Positions 6,988 to 39,908 of a stretch of DNA of 64,000 nt are shown here, one piece after another; the stretch's first letter is position 1; each line of letters begins with the position of its first letter. Source of the DNA: Chryseosolibacter histidini. GTDB lineage: Bacteria; Bacteroidota; Bacteroidia; Cytophagales; Cyclobacteriaceae. The stretch spans positions 68,554-132,553 of the forward strand of contig NZ_JAHESF010000007.1 of NCBI RefSeq assembly GCF_018598225.1, written 5' to 3'. A program made the position numbers and the translations under genes. The notes under the pieces are model-generated. The model ran no database searches. It was not told the origin of the DNA and was given only the letters and a program-made list of their open reading frames with translations.

Positions 6988-7203
6988 TTTTCCATTTCCG
7001 GTGGAAGTGATACCAGGTACGAATTACGAGGTACGAAGTACGGTCTACCAGGAACGAAAATACGATGTATTTCACGTACCTCGTTCCCGATCGCTATCGG
7101 GATCTGACCTCGTACCTTTTTAACGGTAGTCAACATTTGCCACCCGTCAAACGACACCTTTCCGATCGAAAAATAAGATCATTATTTCATAAATTTATAG
7201 GTC

Positions 7204-8235
7204 ATGAGAATACCGCTTGAGATCCTGTTGCTGACCAGTGGAGCCGGTGCGCTGCAGAGTGCCTTCTTCGGCCTGTATCTTTTTTCCATGCGCAAGGGAA
7301 GGAACCTTGCCAACGTGCTGCTGGCATTGCTGCTGCTTGCTTTTGCTGTGCGGATGATCAAATCCGTGGTCTACTATTTCTCGGCGGGGCACCAGGTCTC
7401 CACCATCCTGATGAATTTAGGTTTCGGTACCAACCTGGCCATTTTTCCGCTGCTGCTGCTCTACCTGAACTCATTCTTTGACAAGAACTATCAGCTCACC
7501 TGGCAACGGGATGCGCTTCACCTGCTACCGGCCATTCTCGTAATCCTGCTGAGCCCCGTGCTTACCTCCTACTTCTGGATGCAACAGCATGGCTATGCGA
7601 TCTCTCTGTGGTCGGCAGCGCTGTACCTGCCATTTTGCCTCCAGGCGATCTTCAAAAATTTCCGGAAGGCCTCCCGCACGCAGCGCGTTTGGGTGCTGAG
7701 CCTTACCGCGGGTGTGACCCTGGTATGGGGTGCCTACATGGCCAATTTTATTTTCGGACTGGTCTCCTACATCGCTGCACCGGTGGCGTTCTCTTTCCTG
7801 ATCTATTTTCTCAGTTACCTGGCCCTGCGGAAGAACGAGATCTTTATGCCACGGGAGCGCTACCAGAACTCGGCTTATAGCGAAGCGCAGGTCAGTCAAT
7901 GTTTTGAAGCACTGCAGGCGCTGCTGCTTTCACGCCAATCCTATAAAGATGCCGGCCTTACCCTGCCCAAGCTGGCCAGCCTGTTGAATGTCTCCCCCAA
8001 CCTGCTTTCCGAAACCATCAACCGGCGCACACAACAAACTTTCCCCGATTACATCAACAGCTTCCGCATCCGGGAGGCGCAGCGGCTGCTGAAAGACCCT
8101 GCCTACAGTCACCAGAAGATCACGGCCATAGCCTTCGAAACAGGGTTTAACAGCGTTTCGGTATTCAACGCCGCCTTCAGAAAGTACACAAACACAACGC
8201 CATCGGCTTACCGGAAACACGCACCGGGTATGTAA
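7204..8235 (+). CDS. AraC-family transcriptional regulator with N-terminal multi-pass membrane domain
   Basis: About 220 aa of hydrophobic helices, followed by an AraC HTH (SFRIREAQRLLKDPAYSHQKITAIAFETGFNSVSVFNAAFRKYTNTTPSAYRK). Confidence 0.75.
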   Translation: MRIPLEILLLTSGAGALQSAFFGLYLFSMRKGRNLANVLLALLLLAFAVRMIKSVVYYFSAGHQVSTILMNLGFGTNLAIFPLLLLYLNSFFDKNYQLTWQRDALHLLPAILVILLSPVLTSYFWMQQHGYAISLWSAALYLPFCLQAIFKNFRKASRTQRVWVLSLTAGVTLVWGAYMANFIFGLVSYIAAPVAFSFLIYFLSYLALRKNEIFMPRERYQNSAYSEAQVSQCFEALQALLLSRQSYKDAGLTLPKLASLLNVSPNLLSETINRRTQQTFPDYINSFRIREAQRLLKDPAYSHQKITAIAFETGFNSVSVFNAAFRKYTNTTPSAYRKHAPGM

Positions 8236-11716: not shown

Positions 11717-13210
11717 TTGGATGCACTATGTCACGCCATGCTCATCCGAAAGAACACCAAAGCATATAAAACGATCGTTGCGATCGTCACCGATTGCCAG
11801 AACAGGGCTGACAGGGAAAGGCTCATCCGGCTGTACATCACCAAGGCAGGCCACTCGATCAATGACCGGATCAGTGTTGAAGGGATCCAGGGCGAAGCGG
11901 GCCTTTTTTATGAGATGAACTACCAGGCGGTTTTGAACAATCTCAAATCGTCTAACCACCAGCTGCACCAAAGCGACGAAATTGCCGGCCTCTACTTTTT
12001 TCACAGCACCCCGAACAAAGCCTGGGATGAAACACCTTTCGAGTTTGACGAAGCCGTGAGAGATGAATTTGCCTCGCTGCCCGAGCTTCCGCTGGTGAGA
12101 AAAAAAGAGAAAGCACAAAAGTTCGTGTTGCCGGCCCCGAAAATAAAATCAGAGTCGAAAGCCGAACCGAAGACTGCCAAAAAAGAAGCGACAAAAAAGA
12201 CGGACAAGGCTCCGGTCGTTCAGCGCGAAGACTCGAAACAACCAAATTACAAGCTCAGGCATAATATCCATTTTACAGGCCTCGACAAAATTGTTTTCAG
12301 GCAGCCACACCTCACGCGGAAAGATGTGCTGGATTACTACAACAAAATAGCGGAGCACTTGTTGCCTTATCTGAAAGATCGTCCGCAGTTGATCCGCCTT
12401 CAGGGCGATAGTGCGGGAAATCCCGGATATGCTGATGCGGAGGGACTGGCGCAGGATGGCAAGCTCGAGTTGCCGGACTGGCTCCAGACCGCCACCGTCA
12501 CCGAAGGCAGAACACTAAAACACCCGCTGCTCTGCAACGACAAGGAGCATTTGTTATTTTATGCCGGAATTGGTTGCGTTGGGTTCAACCCACACCATGC
12601 GCGGGCAAAGTCACCGGACTCGCCTGACTACCTTGTGATCGTGATCGATTCACCGGAAGCTTCCTTCAGCAAGGCCATCGATGTGGCGCTCACAGCCAGG
12701 GAGATCTTAACAGGTCTTCAGTTGCCGTCGCTGGTAAAGACCGATGGCATGTCAGGGCTGCACCTTTACGTTCCCCTCGATGCCAAAAGTGATTTTGAAG
12801 CGGCCAGGAATGCCGGCGAATATATCTGCAGGCTCATCCGCCTGAAGATCCCCGACCTCGTGACGGTCTCCGGTTTTGACGCGTATAGTTATGGCAAAGT
12901 GTCTTTAGACTACCAGGTGAACGAAGCAGGAAAAAGTGTGATCGCTCCGTATTCGCTCGTACCTGGCACAGCGGCAACCGTTGCAACGCCATTGCTATGG
13001 GAAGAAGTGAAGGAAGGCCTGCGGGCGGAGGATCACAACCATACAACAATTTTCCAGCGCCTGAAGGAAGAAGGCGATCCGTTTGCTGCGCTTTCCAAGA
13101 AAAAGGTGAATGCTGCCGACCTCTTCGAAAGACTGGAAGGGAACTACGGGTTTCTGCTCACACCTCATCCTGACCTTCTCCTGGGAGGAGAAGGGAGAAT
13201 GCAGAAGTAG
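11717..13210 (+). CDS. Stand-alone NHEJ LigD polymerase (primase-polymerase) domain protein with ~190 aa N-terminal extension
   Basis: C-terminal 300 aa match the LigD Pol domain: HFTGLDKIVFRQPHLTRKDVLDYYNKIAEHLLPYLKDRPQLIRL ... VIVIDSPEASFSKAIDVALTAREILTGLQLPSLVKTDGMSGLHLYVPL. No ligase or nuclease domain is present in the ORF. Confidence 0.7.
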   Translation: MDALCHAMLIRKNTKAYKTIVAIVTDCQNRADRERLIRLYITKAGHSINDRISVEGIQGEAGLFYEMNYQAVLNNLKSSNHQLHQSDEIAGLYFFHSTPNKAWDETPFEFDEAVRDEFASLPELPLVRKKEKAQKFVLPAPKIKSESKAEPKTAKKEATKKTDKAPVVQREDSKQPNYKLRHNIHFTGLDKIVFRQPHLTRKDVLDYYNKIAEHLLPYLKDRPQLIRLQGDSAGNPGYADAEGLAQDGKLELPDWLQTATVTEGRTLKHPLLCNDKEHLLFYAGIGCVGFNPHHARAKSPDSPDYLVIVIDSPEASFSKAIDVALTAREILTGLQLPSLVKTDGMSGLHLYVPLDAKSDFEAARNAGEYICRLIRLKIPDLVTVSGFDAYSYGKVSLDYQVNEAGKSVIAPYSLVPGTAATVATPLLWEEVKEGLRAEDHNHTTIFQRLKEEGDPFAALSKKKVNAADLFERLEGNYGFLLTPHPDLLLGGEGRMQK

Positions 13211-13463: not shown

Positions 13464-14711
13464 ATGGGGATGTTGGCTGAACACCGGATCTTTGTCGACA
13501 GAAGGGATGCCGGCTTTGAAGTAGGAAAACTGCTTGAAGATCGATACAAAGGAAAGAATGCTTTGGTGGTCGGTATTCCGAGAGGCGGCGTTGTGATCGC
13601 TTACGAGATCGCCAACCTGCTGGAGGGAGAGCTCTCGGCCATCATCACAAAAAAGCTTCCGCATCCACAGCAAAAGGAATTTGCCATCGGATCTGTAGCA
13701 GAAGACGGTTCCGTTTATCTGACGTCTGCAGCAAGAGAGGTAAGCAGCGAAACCATCAGGGCAACCGTGAGGGCACAGGAAAAAGAGATCCAGAGCCGCA
13801 TTCAACGATTCAGGAAAGGAAAACCGTTGCCCAACCTGGAGGGCAGAATTGTGATCATTGCAGACGACGGGATCGCCACAGGCTCAACCATTGTTCCGGC
13901 CATCACTTTGTGCAAACGCCGCAAGGCTGCCAGGGTGATCATTGCAGCGCCCGTGTCGGGCAAAAGATTCGTATCCGAGATCCATGACCTGGCCGATGAG
14001 ATCGTCATCGTTGAACAACCCGCAGACTTTTATGCGGTGGGGCAGGTATACAATGACTTCCATCATTTGTCAGATGAAGAAGTAGTTGCCTTTATCAATG
14101 ATTTCGAACGAAGGCGAAACGACAAAATAAAAAGTGAGACGATTCACAATAGAAACTTACAATCAAACAAAAATCAGATTATGGCAATTCAAGCAAATGA
14201 AGCAGTGGCAAAAGACTCCAAACTGAAAGAGTTCTTTGTCGATCAGCTCCAGGATATTCTCTGGGCTGAAAAAAAGCTGGTGAAAACATTACCGAAACTT
14301 CAGGAAGCCGCTACCACAACGGAGCTGAGAGATGCGTTCTCTAAACACCTGGAGCAGACCCGTACACATGTTGACAGGCTGTATGAAGTATTCAACATGA
14401 TCGGAGAAGACGCCGACACACAAAAATGTCCTGCCATGGCGGGCATTGTAGATGAAGGTGAAGAGATCATCGACGAAACCGAAGAGGGCACTTCCCAACG
14501 TGATGTGGGATTGATCTTTGCGGCACAGAAAGCAGAGCACTACGAGATCGCCACCTACGGCGGCCTTGTAACGCTTGCGCACACCATTGGCTACGACGAT
14601 GCCGCACAAGTGCTCAGCCAGACACTGGCCGAAGAAAAAGAGACCGATGTGCTGCTCACCCAGATAGCCGAACGAAATGTGAACTACCAGGCAAGCCTGG
14701 AGCCGAAGTAA
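13464..14711 (+). CDS. Fusion: phosphoribosyltransferase-like domain plus YciE/DUF892 ferritin-like domain
   Basis: N-terminal PRTase fold (ALVVGIPRGGVVIAYEIANLL ... IVIIADDGIATGSTI). C-terminal ferritin-like DUF892 (FFVDQLQDILWAEKKLVKTLPKL...EHYEIATYGGLVTLA). Confidence 0.7.
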   Translation: MGMLAEHRIFVDRRDAGFEVGKLLEDRYKGKNALVVGIPRGGVVIAYEIANLLEGELSAIITKKLPHPQQKEFAIGSVAEDGSVYLTSAAREVSSETIRATVRAQEKEIQSRIQRFRKGKPLPNLEGRIVIIADDGIATGSTIVPAITLCKRRKAARVIIAAPVSGKRFVSEIHDLADEIVIVEQPADFYAVGQVYNDFHHLSDEEVVAFINDFERRRNDKIKSETIHNRNLQSNKNQIMAIQANEAVAKDSKLKEFFVDQLQDILWAEKKLVKTLPKLQEAATTTELRDAFSKHLEQTRTHVDRLYEVFNMIGEDADTQKCPAMAGIVDEGEEIIDETEEGTSQRDVGLIFAAQKAEHYEIATYGGLVTLAHTIGYDDAAQVLSQTLAEEKETDVLLTQIAERNVNYQASLEPK

Positions 14712-14878
14712 CATCTGTTCCGGAATTTAATACCCATCGCTTGGTAATCAAAAGGCGGTTCGGTATATTCGTTCAGGAGCCCATCCGTGGTCTGTGAACA
14801 ACAGTGCGGATGGGCTTTTGCTTTACAGGCGGTTTTCCCGGCCGCCGACTGAATTTTCTATACCCTAAACCCTGCCCT

Positions 14879-16504
14879 ATGTTTGTTGACTTTCACTGTC
14901 ATCCTGTGCTCCATTCGTACAACTCGGATAGCGACATCTGGAAATCAGACCCACCTACCACGCGTGAGCGCTCTGCCATGATCAACACGGCCAACCTGCG
15001 CACACCATTCTCTGCCAAGTTCTCGCAGATCGACTTTTCCTCGGCCTGCTCGGGTTCGGTAAGGCTGATCTTCCTCTCGCTCTACCCCATCGAACAGGGC
15101 TTTCTTACCGGTATCCTGACTACCGACGTGCTCAACCCTCATCGTGGAAAGCTCCGGCAATTTCTGAACGTTCCCTTCCGCTCATTCCTGAAACATGTGC
15201 TGCGAAGTGTCACGTTCGGCGAATATGAAAAAGTGACCGCCAAGGTCATGCTCAACATGAAAGGCGCACGTTACGAAGCGATGTCGAGCCCCGATCACGA
15301 ATACATGGACGACCTCCGCGGCGAATACCAGTATTTTATGAATGCCCCGAAGAGCAAAAAGATCGGTGGCATAGAGTATAAGATCGTGATCTTCGGATCA
15401 TTCCGCGAGATGAAGGTACGGCTGCAGCTGAACGAAAGGTTCGAGCCTCAAACACAAGAAAATATCATCGGTGTGCTCTTCAGCGTGGAAGGTGCGCATG
15501 CCTTCGGTTCCGGCCAGCTTAATACCATCCCTGCCGATCACCAGGCCGAGCTTGAACAGCTCAACAACCTGGCCCATCCGAACACAAAGGCGATACTCGA
15601 CAAGATGCTTGACAACATCCGTGAAACGAAGGCATTGGGCAATGGAAATCACAGTCCTTTCTTTGTCACTTTCTCGCACCACTTCTGGAACCAGCTCTGC
15701 GGCCACGCCATGAGTTTGGCAGGTATCATGCACGTTGTGTTCAACCAGGAGCGCGGCATGAGCTCAGGCATGACGGAGCTCGGAAAAAAAGTGCTGGAGG
15801 CATTGCTTTCACGCGAGAACGGTCGCCGCATCCTCATCGACGTAAAACACATGAGCATGGAAGGCCGGCTCTGGTATTACAACTACCTGGAAGAAAATCA
15901 CTGGAAGAAAGGCGACATGGTTCCCATCCTGGCGAGCCACATGGGTGTTACCGGCGAGGCGACAAAAGAAAACGAAAGCACCGACCACTTTCTCATGGAC
16001 GATGTCTATAACGATTCTGGATGGTTCAACCCATGGGATATCAATCTCTCCAACGAGGAGATCCTCACTATCCACAGATCGAGAGGGCTGATCGGTCTCA
16101 ACATGGATCAGCGTATCCTCAGTGGCTCGAAGATCATCGACTCCATGACCCGCGTCTCGAAAGGCATCGATGATATCGGCACCTCGGTGCTCTATAAATC
16201 GATCTGGGCAGAGCCGATCCTCGCCAACATCCTGCACATCGTAAAAACGGTGATGCGCTCAGATGTGGAAGATAAAAACTATGTCTGGCAGATGATCGTG
16301 ATCGGCTCCGATATGGATGGCATGATCAACGCCCTGGATGCCTACTGCCATGCGGGCGATTATAGAGTGATGCGGGAGATCCTGTTGCAGAAAATGATCC
16401 TGCGCACGCAGGTTGACCCGCTGCTTTATTCGGTGAACCTGTCAGAGGTGCTTGACGGGATCTTTTACAAGAATGCGTTGCTTTTCCTAAGTCGAAATTT
16501 CTAA
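14879..16504 (+). CDS. Divergent membrane-dipeptidase (peptidase M19)-like TIM-barrel metallohydrolase (upstream in-frame alternative start at 14804)
   Basis: N-terminal FVDFHCHP metal-binding HxH. LFSVEGAHAF resembles M19 xGVEGGH. C-terminal VIGSDMDGM resembles M19 GIGSDFDG. Overall length 541 aa. Confidence 0.4.
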   Translation: MFVDFHCHPVLHSYNSDSDIWKSDPPTTRERSAMINTANLRTPFSAKFSQIDFSSACSGSVRLIFLSLYPIEQGFLTGILTTDVLNPHRGKLRQFLNVPFRSFLKHVLRSVTFGEYEKVTAKVMLNMKGARYEAMSSPDHEYMDDLRGEYQYFMNAPKSKKIGGIEYKIVIFGSFREMKVRLQLNERFEPQTQENIIGVLFSVEGAHAFGSGQLNTIPADHQAELEQLNNLAHPNTKAILDKMLDNIRETKALGNGNHSPFFVTFSHHFWNQLCGHAMSLAGIMHVVFNQERGMSSGMTELGKKVLEALLSRENGRRILIDVKHMSMEGRLWYYNYLEENHWKKGDMVPILASHMGVTGEATKENESTDHFLMDDVYNDSGWFNPWDINLSNEEILTIHRSRGLIGLNMDQRILSGSKIIDSMTRVSKGIDDIGTSVLYKSIWAEPILANILHIVKTVMRSDVEDKNYVWQMIVIGSDMDGMINALDAYCHAGDYRVMREILLQKMILRTQVDPLLYSVNLSEVLDGIFYKNALLFLSRNF

Positions 16505-29949: not shown

Positions 29950-30687
29950 TTACGCCATCGCAGAACGGAACTCAGTTCGCTCTGCCCAGGCTAGTTTGTC
30001 TGGCATTTCTTGCGAATTGAATTCCAGGTGGATCACGCGCCTGTGTTTCAGGCTTGTTGCTTTTGACGACGCATGAAGAAGCAGTGGCTTCATGATCTGG
30101 ATGCCACACGCCGGAACTTCACAGACATAAGGGATACTGTTTTGCGTGATGAGGGCAATCTCATCATCCGACAACTTTTTATTGTGCGAGCCAGGGATCA
30201 CTTTCAGGGCACCATTCGTCTCATCGGTATCGTCAAGGTGAATTCTCACGGTAACAGTATTTTTCAGGTATTCATCGGGAGGCACTACGCCATGCACACC
30301 GAACTTCTTCGTCCATCCCGTAAAACCGTTGATTTCAATTTTTTCGTTCACATTGATCACAATGTCCTGGTGCCAGGTAACATACCAGTTCGACTCCTGT
30401 GTTTTATCGAAGTAAATGGCTTTTGTAAGGAACAGGGCCGGATCGATGGTGTCCAGGATCTTCAGCAGATTGGAATTGAGGGCCAACGACTTCAATCCTG
30501 GTATTTCCTGCAAAAGGTTTCTGATGGCATAAGTGTCCTCCGATTTGGCTTCACAGTACGCCTGCAGCATGGACTTCATCTGGTCCAACTCATTCTGTGT
30601 AAAGATATGATGAAGGATGCAAAAACCCTTATCGGTCAAGTGTTGAATATTACTAAGGAGTGCAGTATTGTCCCTGTTAACAGTCAT
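29950..30687 (-). CDS. Phytanoyl-CoA dioxygenase (PhyH)-family Fe(II)/2-oxoglutarate oxygenase
   Basis: WHQDIV...IHLDDTDETNGALKVIPGSH facial-triad motif arrangement typical of PhyH. Confidence 0.7.
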   Translation of the reverse strand: MTVNRDNTALLSNIQHLTDKGFCILHHIFTQNELDQMKSMLQAYCEAKSEDTYAIRNLLQEIPGLKSLALNSNLLKILDTIDPALFLTKAIYFDKTQESNWYVTWHQDIVINVNEKIEINGFTGWTKKFGVHGVVPPDEYLKNTVTVRIHLDDTDETNGALKVIPGSHNKKLSDDEIALITQNSIPYVCEVPACGIQIMKPLLLHASSKATSLKHRRVIHLEFNSQEMPDKLAWAERTEFRSAMA

Positions 30688-30973
30688 GGAGAAAAATTTC
30701 TTAAAAAAACGTAAAAAAATTCACTACGCAAAAAGGCTGCGCAGTGAACCGGCAATTTTGAGGCGTGATTTATATGGAACTGATAAACAACGATTTTAAT
30801 AAGATATCATTCGCCAGTTGGCGGATCAAAGATCTTCCCTTACGACTATGTCGGAAAGGAAGCGCGGAAAAGACAACAAGCAAAGACCTGATGAGCGTTT
30901 CTGTATGGCGCCATAGTGTTGTATTGCAATGCGGTGCAACATGCTGCTTGGTTTGATGTTGTTTTCCATTAAT

Positions 30974-31118
30974 CTGCGGGTCGAAGGTTCGATTCCTTCC
31001 CGGTCGAGGCCGGTAGCTCAGTTTGGAAGAGCAGCAGGATGGGTCACGGGTTCGAATCCCGTTCACACTTCAAATGTGATAGCTCAGTTTGGTAGAGCAC
31101 ATGGCTTTTAACCATGAG
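30974..31118 (+). other. Mosaic of tRNA-derived fragments with no intact tRNA: a tRNA 3' piece, a chimeric tRNA-like module with acceptor end, D-arm and T-arm but no anticodon arm, and a 5' two-thirds of tRNA-Lys(TTT) lacking a T-arm
   Basis: 30974-31007 reads GGGTCGAAGGTTCGATTCCTTCCCGGTCGA (T-arm plus 3' acceptor). 31008-31070 reads GGCCGGTAGCTCAGTTTGGAAGAGC...ACGGGTTCGAATCCCGTTCACACTT (D-arm and T-arm only). 31073-31118 reads AATGTGATAGCTCAGTTTGGTAGAGCACATGGCTTTTAACCATGAG (D-arm plus anticodon arm with TTT anticodon, then no T-arm). Confidence 0.6.
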
Positions 31119-31450
31119 AATGAAGCTGACCGCTTCTAAAAAAGGTTACCTCTCGAAAGCAGTTCGGGGGCGCATCGGGCCTGCATGTGAAACATTCCTC
31201 GGGATGTTAGCCTGAAGGCCAGTTTGCTGAAAACCAGTATGTGTAAGGATACCGGATAGCAAGTCGGTTTGCTTTTCTGCATGCCAGCCTGTCTTCTTAA
31301 GGAGACCCTCTCCCCAGACAAGACAGGATAAGCGCAGAAAACCAAACTAAATGCAGCTGTCCTCAATTACACTTCCGTTTTCGGGAGATGATGTGTTTGT
31401 GAACTGCTTTCTTTTAAAATGACTTTATTAACGATTAATTTTTTTTTACA

Positions 31451-32551
31451 ATGAAAAGGATCAGGATCAACACCGGAAAAATTGGCTTGGTGTTCAGGAA
31501 TGGTAACTACAAGAACATGGTTACAGAAGGTGCGTATTGGTTATTCCCGAATGAGGATTCATTCGAGTACGATATGACAAAACCGTTCCATCCTTCCGTT
31601 GACCTGAACATCCTGTTGCGCGATGAGCAGCTGGCAAATATGCTGACGATCGTAGAAGTACGGGATAACGAAATTGTGCTGCAGTACGAAAACGGAAACT
31701 TTAAAACCGTACTGGCACCGGGAAGATACGCTTACTGGAAAGGCGTGACCGATTACACTTTCATCAAAGCAGACCTGAGCAAGATCGAGGTTACTGAAAA
31801 CATCGACAAGTATACGATCATGCGAAAAGAGGTATTGCCTTACGTCAGGGTGTTTACGGTGGAGTCTTTCGAAAAAGGTATCCTGCTGATCGATGGTAAA
31901 TTCTCCAAAGTGCTCGACACAGGCGTGTACTACTTCTGGAAAAACCCTGTCGTTGTCTCTGTGCTGAAAGCAGACCTGAGGCAACTGCAGCTCGAGGTTT
32001 CCGGACAGGAGATCCTGACGAAAGACAAAGCTGCCCTGCGGATCAACTTCTTCACCCAATACAAAGTGGTTGACATTATCAAAGCTTTGATCGACAACAA
32101 GGACTACGATAAACAACTGTATATCCTGATGCAGCTGGCGCTGCGGGAGTTCATCGGCACACTGTCGCTGGATGAATTGCTGGAGAAAAAAGAATCCATT
32201 TCCGCCTATGTGCTGGCCACGCTGAAAGATAAAGCTTACAACCTGGGTGTGGAGATCCGGGACTGCGGCGTCAGGGACATCATCCTGCCGGGTGAAGTGA
32301 AAGAGATCATGAACCAGGTGCTGGTGGCCCAGAAAAAAGCTGAAGCCAACGTGATCATGAGGCGTGAAGAAACGGCTTCCACCAGGAGCCTGCTGAACAC
32401 TGCCAAACTGATGGAAGAAAACTCCATGCTCTTCAAATTGAAAGAAATGGAGTACGTGGAGAAGATCGCCGACAAGATCAACAGTATCTCGTTATCAGGA
32501 GGTAACCAGGTTATTGATCAGCTGAAGGAGATCTTTGTTCCTAAAAAATGA
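31451..32551 (+). CDS. Cytoplasmic SPFH/band-7 (stomatin/slipin-like) protein with duplicated N-terminal beta-rich module
   Basis: C-terminal SPFH core LALREFIGTLSLDELLEKKESISAYVLATLKDKAYNLGVEIRDCGVRDIILPGEVKEIMNQVLVAQKKAEANVIMRRE. No TM helix. N-terminal region has two similar segments (GKIGLVFRNGNYKNMVTEGAYW / GILLIDGKFSKVLDTGVYYFW). Confidence 0.75.
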   Translation: MKRIRINTGKIGLVFRNGNYKNMVTEGAYWLFPNEDSFEYDMTKPFHPSVDLNILLRDEQLANMLTIVEVRDNEIVLQYENGNFKTVLAPGRYAYWKGVTDYTFIKADLSKIEVTENIDKYTIMRKEVLPYVRVFTVESFEKGILLIDGKFSKVLDTGVYYFWKNPVVVSVLKADLRQLQLEVSGQEILTKDKAALRINFFTQYKVVDIIKALIDNKDYDKQLYILMQLALREFIGTLSLDELLEKKESISAYVLATLKDKAYNLGVEIRDCGVRDIILPGEVKEIMNQVLVAQKKAEANVIMRREETASTRSLLNTAKLMEENSMLFKLKEMEYVEKIADKINSISLSGGNQVIDQLKEIFVPKK

Positions 32552-32812
32552 GCCACCCTCCTTCGCTACCCTCGCGTTGATGCCATCACAAGCTTCGGCG
32601 GGCAAGGGAGCCAGGAGGAGCACGTCCTGGGCATTTCCAGACGGTTCTTCGAGGCCTGGTTCTTTTGCCACACTAAGGGCACGAAAAAGACACAAAGGGA
32701 TTTCTCTTTGTGGTGCTTTTGTGGTCTTGGTGCCTTCGTGGCTTTAAAATTGTGTGCAAACAAGACAGTACACATATTGTTATAATTTGTGTTATTATAA
32801 AGAACAATTGAA

Positions 32813-34219
32813 ATGAACTTAACAGGTAACGATCTTAAAAATATAGGATTTGCGGAAGGTAAGGCGTTGGGATTGGCGCTTCAGATCATGGAGCAGCAAT
32901 ATCAGACGATGAGCACCGGGGATAAGCTGGTGCTGCTGAAAGGAGTTTTTGAAGATCCATCTGCTTATGTCAACGATGTAAAGCTTTCGGCATTGGCGCA
33001 TGAGTTGCTTAAACCGGGAGACGATACCATTCCATTGAATGTGGCTGGTAAACCTTATCAGATCTATGGCGCAGATGCCATTGAACAGGGTGCGTTGAGC
33101 CAGATGGAAACGGCCATGAAGCTGCCCGTGACGGTAGCCGGCGCTTTGATGCCGGACGCGCACCAGGGTTACGGCCTTCCTATCGGCGGGGTGCTTGCCA
33201 CACAAAATGCAGTGATCCCATATGGTGTCGGTGTCGATATCGGATGCCGGATGTGCATGACGGTATATAACCTGCCGGTGACAGCGCTCACTGAAAAGAA
33301 AGAGGAGTTTAAAAAGCTGCTCGTCAACAACACCAGGTTCGGTATGGCTACTTTCAACAAACCAAAAGATCACGAGATCTTTGAAAGAAAAGCGTTCAGC
33401 GAGCTTGGCATTGCCCGTGAAATGAAAGACCGCGCATGGCAGCAGATCGGATCATCAGGCGGTGGCAATCACTTTGTAGAGTTCGGTATTGTTGAGATCC
33501 TCGATCCGGTGAACGAATTTAACCTGGCGCCTGGACGTTACGTAGCGCTGCTCTCGCATTCAGGCTCCCGTGGACTGGGTGCCAACATTGCCCGTCATTA
33601 TACGAAGATCGCTATGGACACCTGCAAACTTCCGCAAGAAGCAAAACACCTTGCGTGGCTTGACCTCGATACCGAAGCGGGACAGGAGTACTGGCTTGCC
33701 ATGAACCTTGCCGGCGATTATGCCTCGGCCTGTCATCACCAGATCCATGAGCGGATGGCCATCGGGTTGCGTGAGACACCCCTCGCCATGATCGAGAACC
33801 ACCATAACTTTGCATGGAAGGAGAAAGATGCCGCAGGAAACGAGCTGATCGTTCACCGCAAAGGTGCAACACCCGCGGGAAAAGGTGTGCTCGGAATTAT
33901 TCCGGGATCGATGGCCACACCCGGCTTTATTGTCCGTGGCAAAGGACTTGCCGAGTCGATCAATTCTGCATCGCACGGCGCGGGCAGAACCATGTCGCGA
34001 ACGAAGGCCAAACAAACCATCCTGCAAGGTCATGTGAACAAGTTCCTGAAAGAAGCCGGAGTCGAGCTGATCGGCTCGGGTCTCGACGAAGCGCCCATGG
34101 CATACAAGGACATTCACCAGGTGATGGGTTACCAGCAATCACTCGTTGGAGTGCTCGGCTCGTTCATGCCAAAAATTGTGAGAATGTGTGGTGATGCGAA
34201 GTTCCAAGAGGTGGACTAA
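32813..34219 (+). CDS. rtcB: RtcB-family RNA 3'-phosphate/2',3'-cyclic-phosphate ligase (archaeo-eukaryotic type), paralog 1, with ~90 aa N-terminal extension
   Basis: MPDAHQGYGLPIGGV, GVDIGCRM, GGGNHFVEFG, NHHNFAWKE and HRKGATPA motifs. The metal-binding and GMP-His architecture is diagnostic of RtcB. Confidence 0.9.
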   Translation: MNLTGNDLKNIGFAEGKALGLALQIMEQQYQTMSTGDKLVLLKGVFEDPSAYVNDVKLSALAHELLKPGDDTIPLNVAGKPYQIYGADAIEQGALSQMETAMKLPVTVAGALMPDAHQGYGLPIGGVLATQNAVIPYGVGVDIGCRMCMTVYNLPVTALTEKKEEFKKLLVNNTRFGMATFNKPKDHEIFERKAFSELGIAREMKDRAWQQIGSSGGGNHFVEFGIVEILDPVNEFNLAPGRYVALLSHSGSRGLGANIARHYTKIAMDTCKLPQEAKHLAWLDLDTEAGQEYWLAMNLAGDYASACHHQIHERMAIGLRETPLAMIENHHNFAWKEKDAAGNELIVHRKGATPAGKGVLGIIPGSMATPGFIVRGKGLAESINSASHGAGRTMSRTKAKQTILQGHVNKFLKEAGVELIGSGLDEAPMAYKDIHQVMGYQQSLVGVLGSFMPKIVRMCGDAKFQEVD

Positions 34220-34248
34220 TGTCCAGGATTTTCAGGATGAAAGGATTT

Positions 34249-35463
34249 TCAGGATTTCCGGCTTTTTACCAGCATCCAAAAGAAAAATGAGAGCAAGATA
34301 AAAGCCGAAACGCTGTAGATACGAAAACGTACAAATGAAACCTCTGCGCCACGTGTTTTCATACCACTGTGACTCCATGCAATAAAGGCATCGGCCAGGG
34401 GTATCACGCCGAAGAAGTATTTTTTCGTATCTGCAGTTTGCCACGGAAAGGCCATGGCTTCAACAGTACCCCGTATGCTGGCACTCAGATCCTGCTCGCC
34501 ATACAATGATAAGGTCTGCATGCCTACAATGGTTGCGGCGCCACCAAAGCCAAAGATCACAGGACCGGAATCTATATCACCCATCCCTGATACACCTTTG
34601 GGGTACTCTCTAACGCCCGTAAGACCCAACCAGCTATCGATGAACTTCTCTTTAAAAAGTGCGAACTGCTCCCGGGCGAGTGGCGCATCGATCTCACGCA
34701 AAAAGATCAGCATCAGCGCCAGCGATGATCCTCTTGCAGGCTCGCGCGCGCGGCCATCGGCGGGAAGTACCGCGTGCGGGATCATTCCATCTGCGTCGAC
34801 ATGTTTTCTTACTTCCGTCACCCAATGATCAATCACGTCTTTGTATTGCGGCGTGAAAAGCTTATCGTGTAACGAAAGTGATGCAACGCACACCATAACA
34901 TCTGCAGGCCATGCGCTTCCATAATAGCTTACCGGATAAGTTCTTTGTTGAATCGCTTTCGCGATCGCAGCACATTGCTGTTTGAACTGATCCATTTCTT
35001 TTTTATCCCTGATGTCAGCATCTTCAATTTTCAGCTTTGAACCCAGCACATACGAGCTCCAGCCGTTGTAGAAAGATCCGTAGGGCAAAGAAAGTTCATC
35101 GTTGAAGGGCGCTCTGCCTGTTGGCGAATTAATTTTCAACAACGCTTTGTGCATCTCGGCCCGGCCTTCGCTCACGAAGCTGTTGTTAGCACGATGCTCT
35201 AAAAATGAAGACCATGTCAGGGCATATATGGCGTTAAAAAATACATACCCTTCCGGGAAAATATGTTGCATGTCAGTATCCGCGTGCTGATCTAATGCTT
35301 TCTTCAGTCCCCGTAATTCTTTGACAAGCGTTTGATCAACTTTATCATCACCACTTATTATTGATTCAGAAGTGTTGTTGATGTTCACATTCATTGTCAC
35401 CACTAGCGCCATGAGGACCATCAGCGGCAAAGCGATCATCAGTTTAAAAATTCCCTTCAGCAT
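34249..35463 (-). CDS. Hypothetical membrane-anchored protein (N-terminal signal anchor and C-terminal TM helix), opposite strand between the two rtcB genes
   Basis: 404 aa with hydrophobic N-terminus MIALPLMVLMALVVT and C-terminal AFILLSFFFWMLV. No recognisable catalytic motif. Confidence 0.5.
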   Translation of the reverse strand: MLKGIFKLMIALPLMVLMALVVTMNVNINNTSESIISGDDKVDQTLVKELRGLKKALDQHADTDMQHIFPEGYVFFNAIYALTWSSFLEHRANNSFVSEGRAEMHKALLKINSPTGRAPFNDELSLPYGSFYNGWSSYVLGSKLKIEDADIRDKKEMDQFKQQCAAIAKAIQQRTYPVSYYGSAWPADVMVCVASLSLHDKLFTPQYKDVIDHWVTEVRKHVDADGMIPHAVLPADGRAREPARGSSLALMLIFLREIDAPLAREQFALFKEKFIDSWLGLTGVREYPKGVSGMGDIDSGPVIFGFGGAATIVGMQTLSLYGEQDLSASIRGTVEAMAFPWQTADTKKYFFGVIPLADAFIAWSHSGMKTRGAEVSFVRFRIYSVSAFILLSFFFWMLVKSRKS

Positions 35464-35801
35464 GATCGTGGAAGATAATACTATTTAGAAAAATTCTAAC
35501 TTTTACAATTTTACTTCCTGGCGCATTGTGAATTGAATGCACCGACTTACTTTTGCATAAGCATTTCACCTCCTTGTCTTACTTAAACAGAGGAAGCAAT
35601 GTTGGTCCTGAGTTCACATATCACCCTTAAGCAGCGCTGGTAACAATACCAGATCCGATACTGCTTTATCCTTTTTCTAAAATTATTTACGAACAACCAA
35701 GCCACGCACAGGCTTCGGAATGATCATATGCTTCGCGATCCGGCGTTTGTCATGAGCATTCCTCAACGCAGCTTCTGATCGAAGCATGAGGTGCATGAAC
35801 T

Positions 35802-37208
35802 ATGGGCAAACATAAACTCAATATTAAAGACCTCTCTCCTATCAGCTTTCCCTCTGAGGTGGCCAAAAGCCTGGCATTGAACCTTATGAACAGGCATTTC
35901 AAACACACACCCAATGATGAGAAGCTGGCGTTGATCACAAAAGTGCTCGCAGACCCTGATGCATACATCACTCATGATACACTGAGTTTGCTGGCACATA
36001 AGCTTATTTCCAAATCTGTTCTTGAAACTTTTAAAACGTATGAACTCGACGATGAACCCAAACACTTTGACATTTTCGGCAGCAAGCACATTGAAGTAAA
36101 TGCCGTCCAACAAATGGAACTAGCCATGCGACTTCCCATTGCCGTAAAAGGTGCGCTCATGCCCGATGCACATCAGGGTTACGGACTGCCTATCGGCGGC
36201 GTGCTGGCCACAAAGAATGCCGTGATCCCTTACGGTGTCGGGATGGACATTGGATGCAGGATGGCCCTCAGCATACTCGATGTTCCCGCCAGTTACGTGG
36301 AGCATCATGCCTATGAGATCAAACAGGCGCTGGGGGATCATACACATTTTGGCAATGACGGTGGCCTCGATACCAGGCAGGAGCATCCGGTGCTCGATCA
36401 TCCGGATTTTCAGCAAACTGATCTTCTCAGAAGATTGCATGGAAAAGCTGCAAGACAGCTCGGCAGCTCGGGCTCGGGAAATCACTTTGTTGAGCTCGGC
36501 ATCATCGAGGTTGGTGACGACAATACACTGGGAATTGAATCCGGCGCGTATGCTGCCATACTATCGCATTCCGGCTCCCGAAGCCTGGGTGCCAACATCG
36601 CTCAGCATTATACGGATATTGCGATGAACAAATGCAGACTTCCGCGGGAGGCAAAACACCTCGCATGGTTAACGCTGGATACTGAAGAGGGCCAGGCTTA
36701 CTGGTTATCCATGAATCTTGCGGGCGAATATGCAAAGGCCTGCCATGACCAGATCCATAAAAACCTTTGCAACGCCCTGGGCGCTGGCATCGTGAAGCGT
36801 GTTGAGAACCATCACAACTTCGCCTGGAAGGAAACATTAGCGGACGGGAATGAATACATCGTCCACCGGAAGGGTGCTACGCCGGCCGCGAAAGGTGTGT
36901 TTGGCATAATCCCCGGAAGCATGACAGCGCCCGGATATGTGGTAAGCGGGTTGGGAAACGAATTGTCACTGAACTCTGCTGCCCATGGCGCGGGAAGAAA
37001 AATGTCGAGGTTCAAAGCTAAAAATTCCATCACGATGAGCAGCCTGAAAAAGTTGCTGCAAAGCGAGAAGGTAACACTGATCGGCGGTAGTACAGAAGAG
37101 GCGCCAGCGGCTTACAAGGATATCGAGCTGATCATGCACAACCAGACAACGCTGGTAAATATTGAAGGCAAATTCCATCCCCGCATTGTGAGGATGGCTA
37201 AAGATTAA
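35802..37208 (+). CDS. rtcB: RtcB-family RNA ligase, paralog 2 (about 60% identical to paralog 1, with the same N-terminal extension)
   Basis: MPDAHQGYGLPIGGV, GMDIGCRM, GSGNHFVELG, NHHNFAWKE and HRKGATPAAKGV motifs. N-terminal extension LALITKVLADPDAYITHDTLSLLAHKLI parallels LVLLKGVFEDPSAYVNDVKLSALAHELL of paralog 1. Confidence 0.9.
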   Translation: MGKHKLNIKDLSPISFPSEVAKSLALNLMNRHFKHTPNDEKLALITKVLADPDAYITHDTLSLLAHKLISKSVLETFKTYELDDEPKHFDIFGSKHIEVNAVQQMELAMRLPIAVKGALMPDAHQGYGLPIGGVLATKNAVIPYGVGMDIGCRMALSILDVPASYVEHHAYEIKQALGDHTHFGNDGGLDTRQEHPVLDHPDFQQTDLLRRLHGKAARQLGSSGSGNHFVELGIIEVGDDNTLGIESGAYAAILSHSGSRSLGANIAQHYTDIAMNKCRLPREAKHLAWLTLDTEEGQAYWLSMNLAGEYAKACHDQIHKNLCNALGAGIVKRVENHHNFAWKETLADGNEYIVHRKGATPAAKGVFGIIPGSMTAPGYVVSGLGNELSLNSAAHGAGRKMSRFKAKNSITMSSLKKLLQSEKVTLIGGSTEEAPAAYKDIELIMHNQTTLVNIEGKFHPRIVRMAKD

Positions 37209-37214
37209 AAAACT

Positions 37215-39296
37215 ATGGAAACGAATATTTCACATTCAGAACTTATTCTCAGGAAGCAGAAGCTGGAGCAGGTAAAGTCGGAGCTCAAGGCGAAGTTTCT
37301 TGGCCTTGACGGGATCATCGACGAAGTGACCTCATTGATCATGCCATGGTATCTTTTTCCGGAAGCACAGCTGAGACCCACCATCATCAATCTGTGGGGT
37401 CTGACCGGGTCGGGTAAAACTGCACTGGTGCAGGCTTTCGTAGAACAGCTGGAGTACAGGAAGTTTTACAGTCACATCGATATGGGTGAGTTTGAATCCG
37501 ACTCGGCTACGTGGATCAAAAACATTCTGACAGACGACCTGGATTTCTTCCATGAAAAACCGGCGCTGATCTGCCTGGACGAATTTCAATTCGCCAGAAC
37601 CCTGGATGGCAATAACAACGAGCTTGGAAAAGATAAATTGAGGGTGATCTGGGACCTGCTTGACTCCGGGAAGATCGAGTATATTCCGGGACAAGGCACC
37701 TACTACCTTTTCAGGGCCGAGAACTGCCTGCGAAGAATCGATAAGGCGATCAAGGAAGGTGTAACGCTGGCCAATGGACGGATAGAATATGGCCTCGACC
37801 GTTTCTCAACCATCTTCAGTGGTTTCTTCTTCGACTATAACGACAGGAGCCATGCAACCCAGGATGAGAACTACTTTATGTCCGACGATTTTGTGAACGG
37901 CATGTTCTACCTGTTTGATGATGACGAGTGTTCAAGGGATCATATCAAGGAAATGGTGAAGGCGTCAACGCTTGATGCGCTCAAAATACTCATAACAAAA
38001 GGAATGCATACGAGGCCAGCCACCAAAACGCTGGACCTTTCTCACTGCCTGATCTTCGTATTGGGAAACCTGGATGAGGCTTATACCATGAGCCACAACA
38101 TGAATCCTGATATCAGCGCGGATGAGTTTCACGAACAGACCTCGAAGATCACCATCGCGGACATCAAGCGGGCACTGCGCAAGCGATTCAGACCTGAGCA
38201 GATCGCGCGGTTGGGAAACAACCACGTTATCTATAAGTCGTTCAACAATGCACAGTTCAGGTTACTGATCAGGCAGGAGCTGCAGCGGATCGCTGACTTT
38301 GTTCTTCAGCAGTTTCGCTGGAAAGTCTCTTTCGACGAATCGGTGGTGAATATCGTTTATGCCGAAGGTGTATTTCCAGCGCAAGGCACGAGGCCTGTGT
38401 TGACAACGGTGAAAAACCTCATCGAGTCAAGGATCAGCAGCGTGGTGGTCTCCATTCTCGAGTATCAGCTGAAGATCGACGAGATCGAATGGCGGTTCGA
38501 CAACGGTAACTTCGAATATACACTGAAAGATGCAAACGGTGTTGCCGTTCTGACAGTGTCTGACCCGGGCAGGCTGAAGCTCGAGGACCTCCGGAAAAGC
38601 ATCGATCCGGAAATTCAGGCGCACACTGCCGTGCACGAAGCGGGCCACGCTGTGCTGGCAGCCCTTACGTTAAGGATCGTGCCGACAGTTGTTGTGTCGC
38701 GGACCGCCTCCGATATGGAAGGTTTTTGCCTGGTGAATTTTCCCAAAGGTCCTATGACAAGGCAATCTTTGAAGAAAGACATCGTGATCACACTTGGCGG
38801 ACTTGTAGCTGAAAGAATGATCTTCGGCGAAGACATGACATCCTCGGGCGTATGCAGTGATATCGAAGAAGCTTCGAGGTTGGCCAACAAAGCTATCAGG
38901 GAGTATGGTATGGGGTCAGACCCGCTTCGGCTGGCGTTGCAGGCACAAAATGATGATGCCTTCCTGGTTACTGATAAGTACACAACAGAAGCCATCAGGA
39001 TCATTAAGGAATGCGAAGCCGAGGCTGAAAGGATCCTGACCAATAACAAGCTCCTGTTGCTGAAAATGTCTGAATACCTGACAACACATTCAAGAATGGA
39101 AGAGCCGATGATCGAGACGTATGTAAAAAGATACGGACAGGAAGAATGGATCCAGACCCAAGGGCTGATCAAAAATGACCAGTACTATAAATTCAACACA
39201 ATATTGCAGGGTCAGATCAAGGATCTGCAAAACGAATCTGTAGATTCGGAGATCGAGCGGATCATTTCCACGGTCAGAGAAGAGAGCACTGTTTAA
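37215..39296 (+). CDS. Soluble AAA+/Clp-like P-loop ATPase fused to FtsH-type M41 zinc-metalloprotease domain
   Basis: Walker A GLTGSGKT and Walker B LICLDEF. Sensor-2/lid-like RPEQIARLGNNHVIYKSF. C-terminal HEAGHAV zinc motif followed by LGGLVAERMIFGED, which matches FtsH HEAGHA...LGGRAAEE. No TM helices. The start is 7 bp after rtcB paralog 2. Confidence 0.7.
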   Translation: METNISHSELILRKQKLEQVKSELKAKFLGLDGIIDEVTSLIMPWYLFPEAQLRPTIINLWGLTGSGKTALVQAFVEQLEYRKFYSHIDMGEFESDSATWIKNILTDDLDFFHEKPALICLDEFQFARTLDGNNNELGKDKLRVIWDLLDSGKIEYIPGQGTYYLFRAENCLRRIDKAIKEGVTLANGRIEYGLDRFSTIFSGFFFDYNDRSHATQDENYFMSDDFVNGMFYLFDDDECSRDHIKEMVKASTLDALKILITKGMHTRPATKTLDLSHCLIFVLGNLDEAYTMSHNMNPDISADEFHEQTSKITIADIKRALRKRFRPEQIARLGNNHVIYKSFNNAQFRLLIRQELQRIADFVLQQFRWKVSFDESVVNIVYAEGVFPAQGTRPVLTTVKNLIESRISSVVVSILEYQLKIDEIEWRFDNGNFEYTLKDANGVAVLTVSDPGRLKLEDLRKSIDPEIQAHTAVHEAGHAVLAALTLRIVPTVVVSRTASDMEGFCLVNFPKGPMTRQSLKKDIVITLGGLVAERMIFGEDMTSSGVCSDIEEASRLANKAIREYGMGSDPLRLALQAQNDDAFLVTDKYTTEAIRIIKECEAEAERILTNNKLLLLKMSEYLTTHSRMEEPMIETYVKRYGQEEWIQTQGLIKNDQYYKFNTILQGQIKDLQNESVDSEIERIISTVREESTV

Positions 39297-39356
39297 AAAA
39301 TAAGCGGGGAGCCCGATGATAATATTGGGTGCCCCCTGCATAAAACATCACAAAAA

Positions 39357-39908
39357 ATGATCAACGAAAAAGAAAATAAACGGATCAGCAAGTTCCTGAG
39401 TCTCGTGCTGCGACACAAGCCGGAGACGGTCCATATCGAACTGGACGGAAACGGCTGGACGGATGTGGATGTCCTGATCGAACGTATGCGCGAACATCAG
39501 TTTAACATCAGCCGGGAGATCCTGGCGCACGTTGTGAGCACGAATGACAAAAGCCGGTTTGCCTTCAGTGACGATCTCACCCGGATCCGGGCGAGCCAGG
39601 GTCATTCTGTTGACATCGACCTGGGCTACGAAGCACAACAGCCACCACCTGTTCTGTATCATGGCACAACGGAGAATGCCCTTGCTTCGATCCTGAAAAC
39701 GGGATTGGAAAAACGGGACAGGCACCATGTTCATCTCAGCACGGAGATCAAAACCGCCACTGCCGTGGGCCAGCGATACGGGAAGCCAACCATCCTTCAG
39801 GTGGCAGCCGGTGAAATGTTCCAGGATGGTTACCGGTTTTACCGAACGGATAACAACGTGTGGCTCACAGATCACGTACCGGTGAAGTACTTTACGGTTA
39901 TTGAATAG
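39357..39908 (+). CDS. kptA: RNA 2'-phosphotransferase Tpt1/KptA
   Basis: KFLSLVLRHKPE, LYHGTTENALASILKTGL and RHHVHLS motifs with catalytic Arg/His residues, typical of Tpt1/KptA. 183 aa. Confidence 0.85.
   Translation: MINEKENKRISKFLSLVLRHKPETVHIELDGNGWTDVDVLIERMREHQFNISREILAHVVSTNDKSRFAFSDDLTRIRASQGHSVDIDLGYEAQQPPPVLYHGTTENALASILKTGLEKRDRHHVHLSTEIKTATAVGQRYGKPTILQVAAGEMFQDGYRFYRTDNNVWLTDHVPVKYFTVIE

Follow-up and report, generated by a model that had tools for sequence, protein, structure and literature searches.

Two kinds of RtcB-containing gene system already described come closest to the locus reported here. The first, predicted by Burroughs and Aravind in 2016, joins RtcB to a Band-7 protein and a tRNA-like noncoding RNA (ncRNA) named b7a-tRNA; according to the 2018 summary by Wang et al. 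(bioRxiv 10.1101/312249), this system was seen as a parallel to Ro60/Y RNA, YrlA and b7a-tRNA occasionally swap scaffolds, and experimental validation was lacking. The second is the RtcB2–PrfH operon of Escherichia coli ATCC25922, for which the rescue and then repair of colicin-E3-damaged ribosomes has been established experimentally (PMC9304027, PMC9223846; rescue and repair are also treated in PMC12829566). We analysed a 64,000-nucleotide (nt) stretch of the Chryseosolibacter histidini genome (Bacteroidota; contig NZ_JAHESF010000007.1, positions 68,554 to 132,553; hereafter the window), in which an RNA-repair island carries a tRNA-like ncRNA, a Band-7 protein, two RtcB ligases, a membrane protein, a soluble AAA+ ATPase fused to an M41 protease (AAA-M41) and the RNA 2′-phosphotransferase KptA. 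The island is a variant of both known kinds, and we think it probable that it is a composite RNA-damage response island of soil Bacteroidota made of two mobile modules, A (30973–34219) and B (about 35526–39908; Table 1).

An initial annotation of this DNA had proposed an RNA-repair system coupled to proteolysis, and that central intuition describes a real, coherent feature. All seven elements it named lie where it placed them, with open reading frames confirmed for the Band-7 protein, both RtcBs, the membrane protein, AAA-M41 and KptA, and profile searches with Pfam supported the Band_7, RtcB, Peptidase_M41 and Tpt1 assignments, the AAA profile (PF00004) remaining below its cut-off. Its claim of an undescribed system stands in part: the accessible literature yielded no account of the protease partner, whereas the RtcB/Band-7/tRNA-like ncRNA association was predicted in 2016 (as summarized in 10.1101/312249) and RtcB–PrfH has been characterized (PMC9304027).

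The element 5′ of the Band-7 gene, which had been described as a mosaic of tRNA fragments, is a conserved structured RNA of ~180 nt inside a structured leader of ~450 nt. The tRNA-like pieces at 30975–31137 are real, being matched by Rfam, and make up two circularly permuted YrlA-type tRNA-like domains, an anticodon-like hairpin and a 3′ pseudoknot. Domain 1 consists of a closing stem (30973–30977/31034–31038), T-arm (30983–30999), acceptor-like hairpin (31000–31013) and D-arm (31016–31032), and matches YrlA at 30975–31036 (46.8 bits, model positions 23–85). Domain 2 repeats the T-arm (31046–31062), acceptor-like hairpin (31063–31079) and D-arm (31082–31098), followed by the anticodon-like arm (31100–31116) with the loop CUUUUAA, and is matched by both YrlA (31042–31098, 38.5 bits, model positions 27–81) and the Rfam tRNA model (31079–31137, 33.5 bits). 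The terminal hairpin (GAAGC-UGACC-GCUUC, 31122–31136) is followed by an A-rich tract and GGUUA (31144–31148), which pairs with the hairpin loop in the window when read by eye.

Because single-sequence folding of the ncRNA was uninformative (z-score −1.0), its structure was decided by comparative analysis. We fetched 80 metagenomic loci encoding SPFH/Band-7 homologues (61–92% identity to the window protein, nearly all of the same length), across which a T-arm/D-arm/T-arm/(D-arm) pattern recurs at a near-constant distance 5′ of the Band-7 gene. Thirty-one diverse copies were aligned with MAFFT, blind to structure (alignment A3), and nine helices were specified on top: the closing stem, the T-arm, acceptor-like hairpin and D-arm of each domain, the anticodon-like arm and the terminal hairpin. 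In this alignment 94.3% of cells are paired, compensatory double changes are seen at 35 of the 43 pairs, and the covariation score is 0.578, compared with 0.217 in shuffled alignments (0/500) and at most 0.144 with pairing partners slid. A second, model-fitted alignment of 43 sequences gave 96.2% pairing, with covariation in 38 of 43 pairs. Searching with a covariance model built from the ncRNA alignment placed the element upstream of Band-7 in 61 of the 62 loci with 520 nt or more of upstream sequence, at a median of 290 nt from the ATG. In the pseudoknot, loop and tail from the same locus pair over 4.8 base pairs (bp) versus 3.5 bp for combinations across loci (permutation, 0/2000), with at least nine helix sequences represented.

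The anticodon-like loop keeps the signature of a tRNA (31 loci: Y32 in 28, U33 in 29, R37 in 31 and A38 in 29), and positions 34–36 hold 16 different triplets. The element is also modular: a single tRNA-like domain is present in the nearest relatives of the window, two domains are present in the window and in most of the distant loci, and two copies (L036, 9640–9680; L044, 4470–4510; comparison loci are cited by such numbers throughout) have two successive anticodon-like hairpins of the CUACG...CGUAG and AUGGA...UCCAU types.

YrlA (RF02553), part of the Rsr–YrlA/YrlB–RtcB(A) operon of Salmonella and other bacteria, shares with the window RNA the order of T-arm, acceptor-like stem-loop and D-arm as well as invariant tRNA nucleotides; the Rsr–Y RNA–RtcB system is likewise encoded beside RtcB, and the TROVE versions of the island have the same divergent WYL-type gene. 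The two RNAs differ in that the Ro-binding stem is unmatched in the window (model positions 1–22 and 86–114), both match scores lie below the gathering threshold of 69 bits, and the window has two tandem domains, an anticodon-like arm and a 3′ pseudoknot. Moreover, tblastn found no TROVE/Ro gene in the window, and the ncRNA precedes the scaffold gene instead of lying between rsr and rtcB. We would not call it a Y RNA in the strict sense. With the 2016 prediction, as it is summarized in 10.1101/312249, the window has in common an RtcB beside Band-7 and a tRNA-like ncRNA, with Ro/YrlA and Band-7/tRNA-like RNA interchangeable; set against that summary of b7a-tRNA, the window RNA is distinguished by its double permuted mimic, anticodon-like hairpin, pseudoknot and ~450-nt leader, part of which architecture the original publication may describe.

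The tRNA-like pieces had been taken for scars of site-specific integration. On that account they would be what decay has left of tRNA genes at an integration site or in a degraded array, and the island would be a recently integrated mobile element; many related islands do have true tRNA arrays nearby, the pieces lie in a non-tRNA order with no tRNA called by ARAGORN, and tandem tRNAs can mimic YrlA matches, a caution given in PMC4201824. The permuted order is, however, kept in more than 60 loci, with compensatory changes in every helix and Band-7 identity down to 61%. The element is not a tRNA dimer, since its acceptor-like stems form closed hairpins and D-arm 1 leads to T-arm 2 with no anticodon arm in between. 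No att-like direct repeat of the tRNA-like segment occurs at the right edge of the island, the GC content of the window is flat and unremarkable, and the left flank, with its PhyH gene, is syntenic in relatives. We rejected the integration scar on these grounds, namely zero tRNA genes from ARAGORN over the whole window, no right-edge repeat, flat GC content and a covarying structure held at a fixed distance from Band-7, and regard decay of tRNA genes as hardly credible.

Several further observations concern the surroundings of this RNA. Roughly 150 nt 5′ of the tRNA-like domain (30815–30965) are almost invariant in close relatives, including GACCTGATGAGCGTTTCTGTATGGCGCC; this block has no Rfam match and may be a 5′ extension of the ncRNA or its promoter. 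Close relatives have an extra conserved block (L017, 4100–4330, about −780 to −600 from Band-7) with a T-arm-like hairpin ~630 nt upstream of the gene, which is not found in the window. In L019 (9232–9317), L030 and L031, ARAGORN calls a tRNA-Tyr farther upstream of Band-7. Rfam gave no preQ1 match for the pseudoknot, no hammerhead match for a CUGAUGA block upstream of the ncRNA, and no other family at E ≤ 0.5 in the rest of the island.

The RNA is continuous with a conserved leader that runs towards the Band-7 gene. Directly after the pseudoknot, GAAAGCAGUUCG (31155–31166) pairs with UGAACUGCUUUC (31400–31411) in a long-range helix, which was spotted by eye and then tested by permutation: a locus's own strands pair over 11.3 bp compared with 8.6 bp across loci (0/1000), with covarying extensions. 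A U-tract follows the helix, about 40 nt before the Band-7 AUG in the window. Inside the leader, a conserved terminator-like hairpin (31251–31268) is followed by a U-rich tail, the terminator scan as a whole being at chance level.

This arrangement bears on whether the tRNA-like leader acts mainly in cis, as a sensor or riboregulator. An anticodon nuclease or tRNA-binding factor would act on the mimic, altering the long-range helix and U-tract and thereby switching on Band-7 and RtcB. Such a role is consistent with the fixed place of the RNA 5′ of Band-7, its continuity with the leader, the covarying helix and the internal hairpin, as well as with a U-tract whose distance from the ATG is about 40–55 nt in the window and many other loci and reaches about 130 nt in some, and with a loop that retains Y32, U33, R37 and A38 while its 'anticodon' varies freely. 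The occurrence of the ncRNA directly before AAA-M41 in L006 and L015, with no Band-7 in the 10 kb upstream or in the first ~5 kb downstream examined, fits a general regulatory head, and there is precedent in the induction of rtc operons by damaged tRNA through RtcR (PMC7790460). Yet its closest known relative, YrlA, works in trans as a stable component of a ribonucleoprotein, RNAalifold gave no consensus structure for the 240–470-nt downstream leader, and any alternative switching structure is putative. A mainly cis-acting role is possible rather than probable in our judgement; it is the chief rival to the cofactor role and is compatible with it, the two being non-exclusive.

Downstream of the leader, the Band-7 protein is predicted to be soluble, with no segment resembling a transmembrane (TM) helix and an N-terminal region of ~135 residues without family assignment. 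Its closest solved relatives are stomatins (E ~2 × 10⁻¹⁹), several of the listed PDB entries being deposited as 16 chains of the same sequence. The rtcB1 gene follows after 261 nt, and the succession of Band-7 and RtcB is conserved in most loci with downstream DNA. The spacer itself (32552–32812) holds a hairpin at 32691–32712 that looks like a terminator whichever strand is read; elsewhere the spacer is occupied by tRNA genes or a small open reading frame of 105–118 residues. RtcB1 and RtcB2 are 52% identical over their full length, including a common N-terminal extension of ~95 residues, and an alignment to Pyrococcus horikoshii RtcB shows that both, with RtcB domains of full length, keep the metal-binding and catalytic motifs PDAHQGYG, GSSGGGNHF and SHGAGR (GMP-histidine). 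Their best solved relatives are the Pyrococcus, Thermus and human RtcBs (E about 10⁻³¹ to 10⁻²²). The label 'archaeo-eukaryotic-type' given to them earlier is not established, as neither reaches the cut-off of any curated NCBIfam RtcB subfamily. Taken together, the ncRNA, the soluble SPFH/Band-7 protein and RtcB1 appear to constitute the Band-7/tRNA-like-RNA/RtcB system predicted in 2016, in so far as the 2018 summary describes it.

Module B is read as a derivative of the RtcB2–PrfH operon type on the strength of distant gene triads, the RtcB tree and the E. coli system. We examined protease neighbourhoods in 16 genome loci with an AAA-M41 homologue, 14 of which include upstream DNA. An RtcB2 orthologue lies directly upstream of AAA-M41 in 11 of the 16 (11 of the 14 with upstream DNA), and Band-7, RtcB1 and KptA are usually absent nearby. 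Nine distant Bacteroidota loci were sampled from a 53%-identical AAA-M41 homologue (L069, L097–L104), and in eight of them (L097 being the exception) the order is RtcB, an RF-1-domain (PrfH-like) gene and AAA-M41, with genes often overlapping or nearly abutting. A simple neighbour-joining tree splits the RtcBs linked to a scaffold, including RtcB1, from those linked to PrfH or the protease, including RtcB2, which clusters with RtcBs directly preceding RF-1/PrfH genes in L069 and L098–L100. Since RtcB2 falls below the NCBIfam 'release_rtcB' cut-off (140 versus 272 bits), orthology to E. coli RtcB2 rests on gene context and this tree. In the window, 6 nt separate the rtcB2 stop from the protease start and 60 nt separate the protease from kptA; tblastn found no PrfH in the window. 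The locus thus differs from RtcB2–PrfH of E. coli in having no PrfH, and the Bacteroidota differ in adding AAA-M41 as a third gene after it. These patterns are best read as an ancestral order RtcB–PrfH–AAA-M41 from which the lineage of the window would have lost PrfH and kept the third gene.

The protease is soluble, FtsH-like in its M41 half only and uncharacterized, much as the initial annotation had suspected. Its M41 domain scores 69.7 bits against PF01434 (cut-off, 29.9), its HEAGH motif aligns with those of Yme1 and FtsH, and it matches Yme1 (E = 1.8 × 10⁻¹⁵) and the M41 part of FtsH (4 × 10⁻¹⁷). The ATPase keeps Walker A (GLTGSGKT), Walker B (LDEF) and other invariant ATPase motifs, with an insert of ~160 residues between Walker B and the presumed sensor 1; it scores 17.9 bits against PF00004 (cut-off, 21.2), and residues 262–413 match the C-terminal part of the second AAA+ domain (D2) of ClpB, ClpV and ClpA (E = 7 × 10⁻¹¹ to 10⁻⁷). 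The FtsH model TIGR01241 scores 62 bits (cut-off, 600), with coverage confined to the M41 part. An AlphaFold2 (AF2) model is of moderate confidence (predicted local distance difference test, pLDDT, 69.8), and its best Foldseek matches are FtsH/FtsHi and the second nucleotide-binding domain of ClpB. With FtsH and Yme1 the protein shares an M41 domain bearing HEXXH and the order ATPase then M41; it differs from FtsH in having neither a TM segment nor a hydrophobic segment at its N terminus, in the ATPase score and insert just given, and in a gene context of RNA repair instead of membrane quality control.

The family is large. Searching with the ATPase domain returned at least 800 representatives (clusters at 50% identity) at E ≤ 10⁻³⁰, nearly all 660–720 residues long, which points to a uniform architecture. 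Members carry the names 'hypothetical protein' or 'cell division protease FtsH', those with a named source come from Bacteroidota and Candidatus Kapaibacterium, and the window protein is 100% identical to NCBI protein KK083_09140. Burroughs and Aravind (2019; PMC6514570) list TPR proteins, a Pol-beta nucleotidyltransferase, Zn-ribbon/charged proteins and a further homologue-less charged protein as accessory genes of RFH–RtcB, a list from which the protease is absent. The PrfH literature and full-text searches yielded no link of PrfH or RtcB to an M41/FtsH-like protein, the 2016 paper lying outside that comparison. An analogy, with no homology implied, is that of Vms1, a release-factor-like hydrolase linked to the AAA+ protein Cdc48 in eukaryotic ribosome quality control (PMC6514570): PrfH, a peptidyl-tRNA hydrolase, is coupled genetically to AAA-M41 in L098–L104, and the bacterial protein, unlike Cdc48, carries its own protease domain.

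Because HflK/C and FtsH form an established complex (PDB 7vhp/7wi3), the SPFH protein and AAA-M41 might instead be the obligate core of a cage–protease of that type, to which the RNA enzymes would be accessory. The two genes share one island in the window, L016, L033, L069, L103 and L104, and the Band-7 protein weakly resembles HflK (TIGR01933, 72 bits; also PDB 7vhp). That score is nevertheless far from the cut-off of 159, neither protein is membrane-anchored, and TROVE replaces Band-7 in some islands. AAA-M41 occurs within the available sequence in only 2 of the 80 Band-7 loci, and most AAA-M41 loci lack Band-7 within 10 kb; since each gene is usually found without the other at this distance, an obligate pairing is not supported and co-location with the protease is facultative. 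The constant partners are the ncRNA and RtcB for Band-7, and RtcB and PrfH for the protease. We consider a cage–protease core improbable.

KptA matches its family over the full length and above the NCBIfam equivalog cut-off (NF002014, 255.1 versus 239 bits). It is a facultative, loosely linked member, found within a few kilobases of AAA-M41 in the window, L015, L002 and L101, in the last of these beside the same triad. RtcB ligation leaves no 2′-phosphate. In L101 (11149–17134), the region downstream of RtcB–PrfH–AAA-M41 encodes NUDIX/NrtR, phosphoribosyl pyrophosphate synthetase, NADAR, KptA, a metallophosphatase, DUF4291, a nucleoside deoxyribosyltransferase-like protein and NAMPT, an NAD+ salvage/ADP-ribose set around KptA.

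The two modules are repeatedly found together. No more than ~10 kb separates them, whichever comes first, in the window, L016, L033, L069, L103 and L104, and L099 and L102 are TROVE versions with both. L104 reads WYL / ncRNA / Band_7 / RtcB / RtcB / RF-1 / AAA-M41 and is almost the same island; L099 reads WYL / TROVE / YrlA + 4 tRNAs / RtcB / RlaP / RlaP / RtcB / RF-1 / AAA-M41, the same layout except that Ro stands where Band-7 would be. In both L099 and L102, TROVE, a full-length YrlA match and tRNA genes replace Band-7, and L103 and L104 represent the Band-7 version with the ncRNA. Ohtaekwangia loci end in WYL-PhyH and then the ncRNA just 3′ of module B. Recurrent neighbours include paired RlaP nucleotidyltransferases, RNA_ligase with an HD-kinase, Thg1 with RNA_ligase, an AAA ATPase with an RNaseH-like protein, TPR proteins and divergent WYL-WCX(-PhyH) genes.

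Could these be independent housekeeping genes juxtaposed by chance? Many loci carry one module only, the modules occur separately in many genomes, and relatives vary in the membrane gene and in the genes that flank the island. Co-location nevertheless recurs, in either order and with either scaffold, among taxa whose AAA-M41 proteins are only 53–60% identical, and the surroundings are enriched for RNA-repair families. With RtcB2 before AAA-M41 in 11 of 16 loci, the triad in eight of nine and the near-identical island of L104, the RNA-repair genes do recur together, as first proposed, and chance is very unlikely. The association of the modules is recurrent but facultative, which is typical of shuffling repair or 'conflict' islands. 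The seven parts, earlier described as one coherent module, do not make up a single operon; there are two separable modules, with a membrane gene on the opposite strand that is not conserved and a loosely linked KptA.

Two other features of related islands deserve mention. In L063, L077, L078, L081, L082 and L084, genes for a classical AAA ATPase (~358 residues) and an RNaseH_like protein (PF04308, ~161 residues) lie on the same strand 5′ of ncRNA–Band-7. Same-strand arrays of 3–12 tRNA genes are present inside 22 of 104 loci (145 tRNAs; L056, L060, L070, L074, L084 at 7000–8000, and L099–L103, including L102 at 13526–15011 and L103 at 12288–13135), with none in the window by ARAGORN. Phe-GAA, His-GUG, Gln-UUG, Pro-UGG, Ile-UAU, Lys-UUU, Arg-ACG, Glu-UUC, Asn and Tyr dominate; Gly, Ala, Val, Ser, Thr and Cys are almost absent, and only nine tRNAs encode CCA. 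Many of the array types are classic targets of anticodon nucleases, and the arrays may therefore be spare or decoy tRNAs.

Domain identities, RNA structure, conservation and gene linkage are what the data show; for the composite damage-response island that we favour, we infer biochemical roles, interactions and co-transcription along the following lines. An SPFH oligomer with the tRNA-shaped RNA as scaffold/cofactor or sensor would bring RtcB1 to broken tRNA-like substrates with 2′,3′-cyclic-phosphate/3′-phosphate and 5′-OH ends, such as ribotoxins leave, making module A the Band-7 counterpart of Ro60(Rsr)–Y RNA–RtcB. If the RtcB2–PrfH pair of E. coli is a guide, RtcB2 would reseal decoding-centre breaks in rRNA, and the hexamer-type AAA+/M41 protease may clear a protein that blocks or derives from rescue, for instance the toxin, ribosomal proteins that have been damaged, or nascent chains released without a tag. 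KptA might remove 2′-phosphates or otherwise remodel RNA ends with NAD+.

Several points weigh against this reading. PrfH, the WYL domain, RlaP and the tRNA arrays of richer islands are missing from the window, and the island may therefore be reduced or partly decayed; the terminator-like hairpins at 32691–32712 and inside the leader make the number of transcription units uncertain. To these are added the position of both RtcBs under every curated NCBIfam subfamily cut-off, the co-occurrence of Band-7 and AAA-M41 within 10 kb in a minority of loci only, and the moderate AF2 model of the protease.

More speculatively, the two modules can be given a joint reading, which we hold with low confidence. 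First, the leader would be a bait or sensor whose anticodon-like loop is attacked or bound in ribotoxin stress, controlling or arming SPFH–RtcB. Second, the AAA+/M41 protein would be an unrecognized third component of RtcB–PrfH rescue, spread over at least 800 clusters in Bacteroidota and related phyla, that degrades PrfH-released products or clears cut ribosomes as a functional counterpart of Vms1–Cdc48.

The flanking and intervening elements of the window add less to this picture. At the position of its PhyH gene, relatives have a 575-residue WYL-WCX-PhyH fusion (L017, 2193–3920, minus strand) and other islands WYL-WCX alone; tblastn of the fusion against the window matched only its residues 343–575, the PhyH part being kept and WYL lost. 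PhyH-like genes lie divergently upstream in 34 loci, and the divergent WYL-WCX(-PhyH) gene looks like the regulator of the island. A strong terminator-like hairpin precedes the window PhyH gene (30750–30718, minus strand). The protein at 34249–35463 has no Pfam, NCBIfam or PADLOC match, and its gene occurs in a comparable position only in L003; it is probably outside the system. A 17-nt tandem duplication (AGGATTTTCAGGATGAA / AGGATTTTCAGGATTTC, 34225–34258) lies between the convergent ends of rtcB1 and this gene. Upstream of rtcB2 is the sole zero-mismatch match of the window to the Bacteroidetes promoter consensus, overall match counts being at chance level, as were those of sigma-70 promoter and terminator scans. 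The promoter consensus and the membrane gene separating the modules suggest, as sequence patterns, that module B is a separate transcription unit. None of the seven island proteins matched PADLOC defence-system models.

Table 1. Features of the RNA-repair island and its flank, with positions in the window.
Feature	Positions	Strand	Evidence
PhyH-domain (2-oxoglutarate–Fe(II) oxygenase-like) protein, 245 residues, divergent from the ncRNA	29950–30687	−	Pfam PhyH, E = 2.3 × 10⁻¹²
ncRNA domain (module) 1, circularly permuted tRNA-like domain	30973–31038	+	YrlA match; all four helices covary
ncRNA domain (module) 2	31046–31116	+	Rfam YrlA and tRNA matches; helices covary
Terminal hairpin, A-rich tract and GGUUA (H-type pseudoknot)	31122–31148	+	Hairpin covariation; permutation test
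Structured leader closed by long-range helix	31155–31411	+	Permutation test; conserved blocks in alignments A2 and A4
Soluble SPFH/Band-7 (stomatin-like) protein, 366 residues	31451–32551	+	Pfam Band_7, E = 4.8 × 10⁻³⁴
RtcB1, predicted 3′-phosphate RNA ligase, scaffold-linked (Band-7/TROVE) clade	32813–34219	+	Pfam RtcB, E = 1.4 × 10⁻⁸²; neighbour-joining clade i
Membrane or secreted protein without family	34249–35463	−	N- and C-terminal hydrophobic segments
Bacteroidetes promoter consensus TTG-N19-TAnnTTTG, exact match upstream of rtcB2	35526–35555	+	Consensus only
RtcB2, predicted RNA ligase, PrfH/AAA-M41-linked clade	35802–37208	+	Pfam RtcB, E = 1.3 × 10⁻⁷⁷
Soluble AAA+ ATPase (ClpB-D2-like) fused to a predicted M41 zinc metalloprotease, 693 residues	37215–39296	+	Peptidase_M41, E = 4 × 10⁻¹⁹
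KptA/Tpt1 RNA 2′-phosphotransferase, facultative member	39357–39908	+	Pfam, E = 9.6 × 10⁻⁴⁹

Bacterial RNA repair still consists mostly of gene-neighbourhood predictions, including those on how Ro/Y RNA, Band-7 and tRNA-like RNAs may serve RtcB. Two elements of this locus stand out for experiment: the double permuted tRNA-mimic leader and the soluble AAA+/M41 protein as a conserved partner of RtcB–PrfH. The first is a strongly covarying RNA with coordinates at the level of helices, natural one- and two-module variants and a mutable anticodon-like loop, and the Band-7 and TROVE versions of the same island provide clean genetic contrasts. The second belongs to a large, uniform and unstudied family whose constant partners, RtcB and PrfH, suggest a part for proteolysis in the rescue of ribotoxin-damaged ribosomes, an idea directly testable in the existing colicin E3/PrfH in vitro systems.

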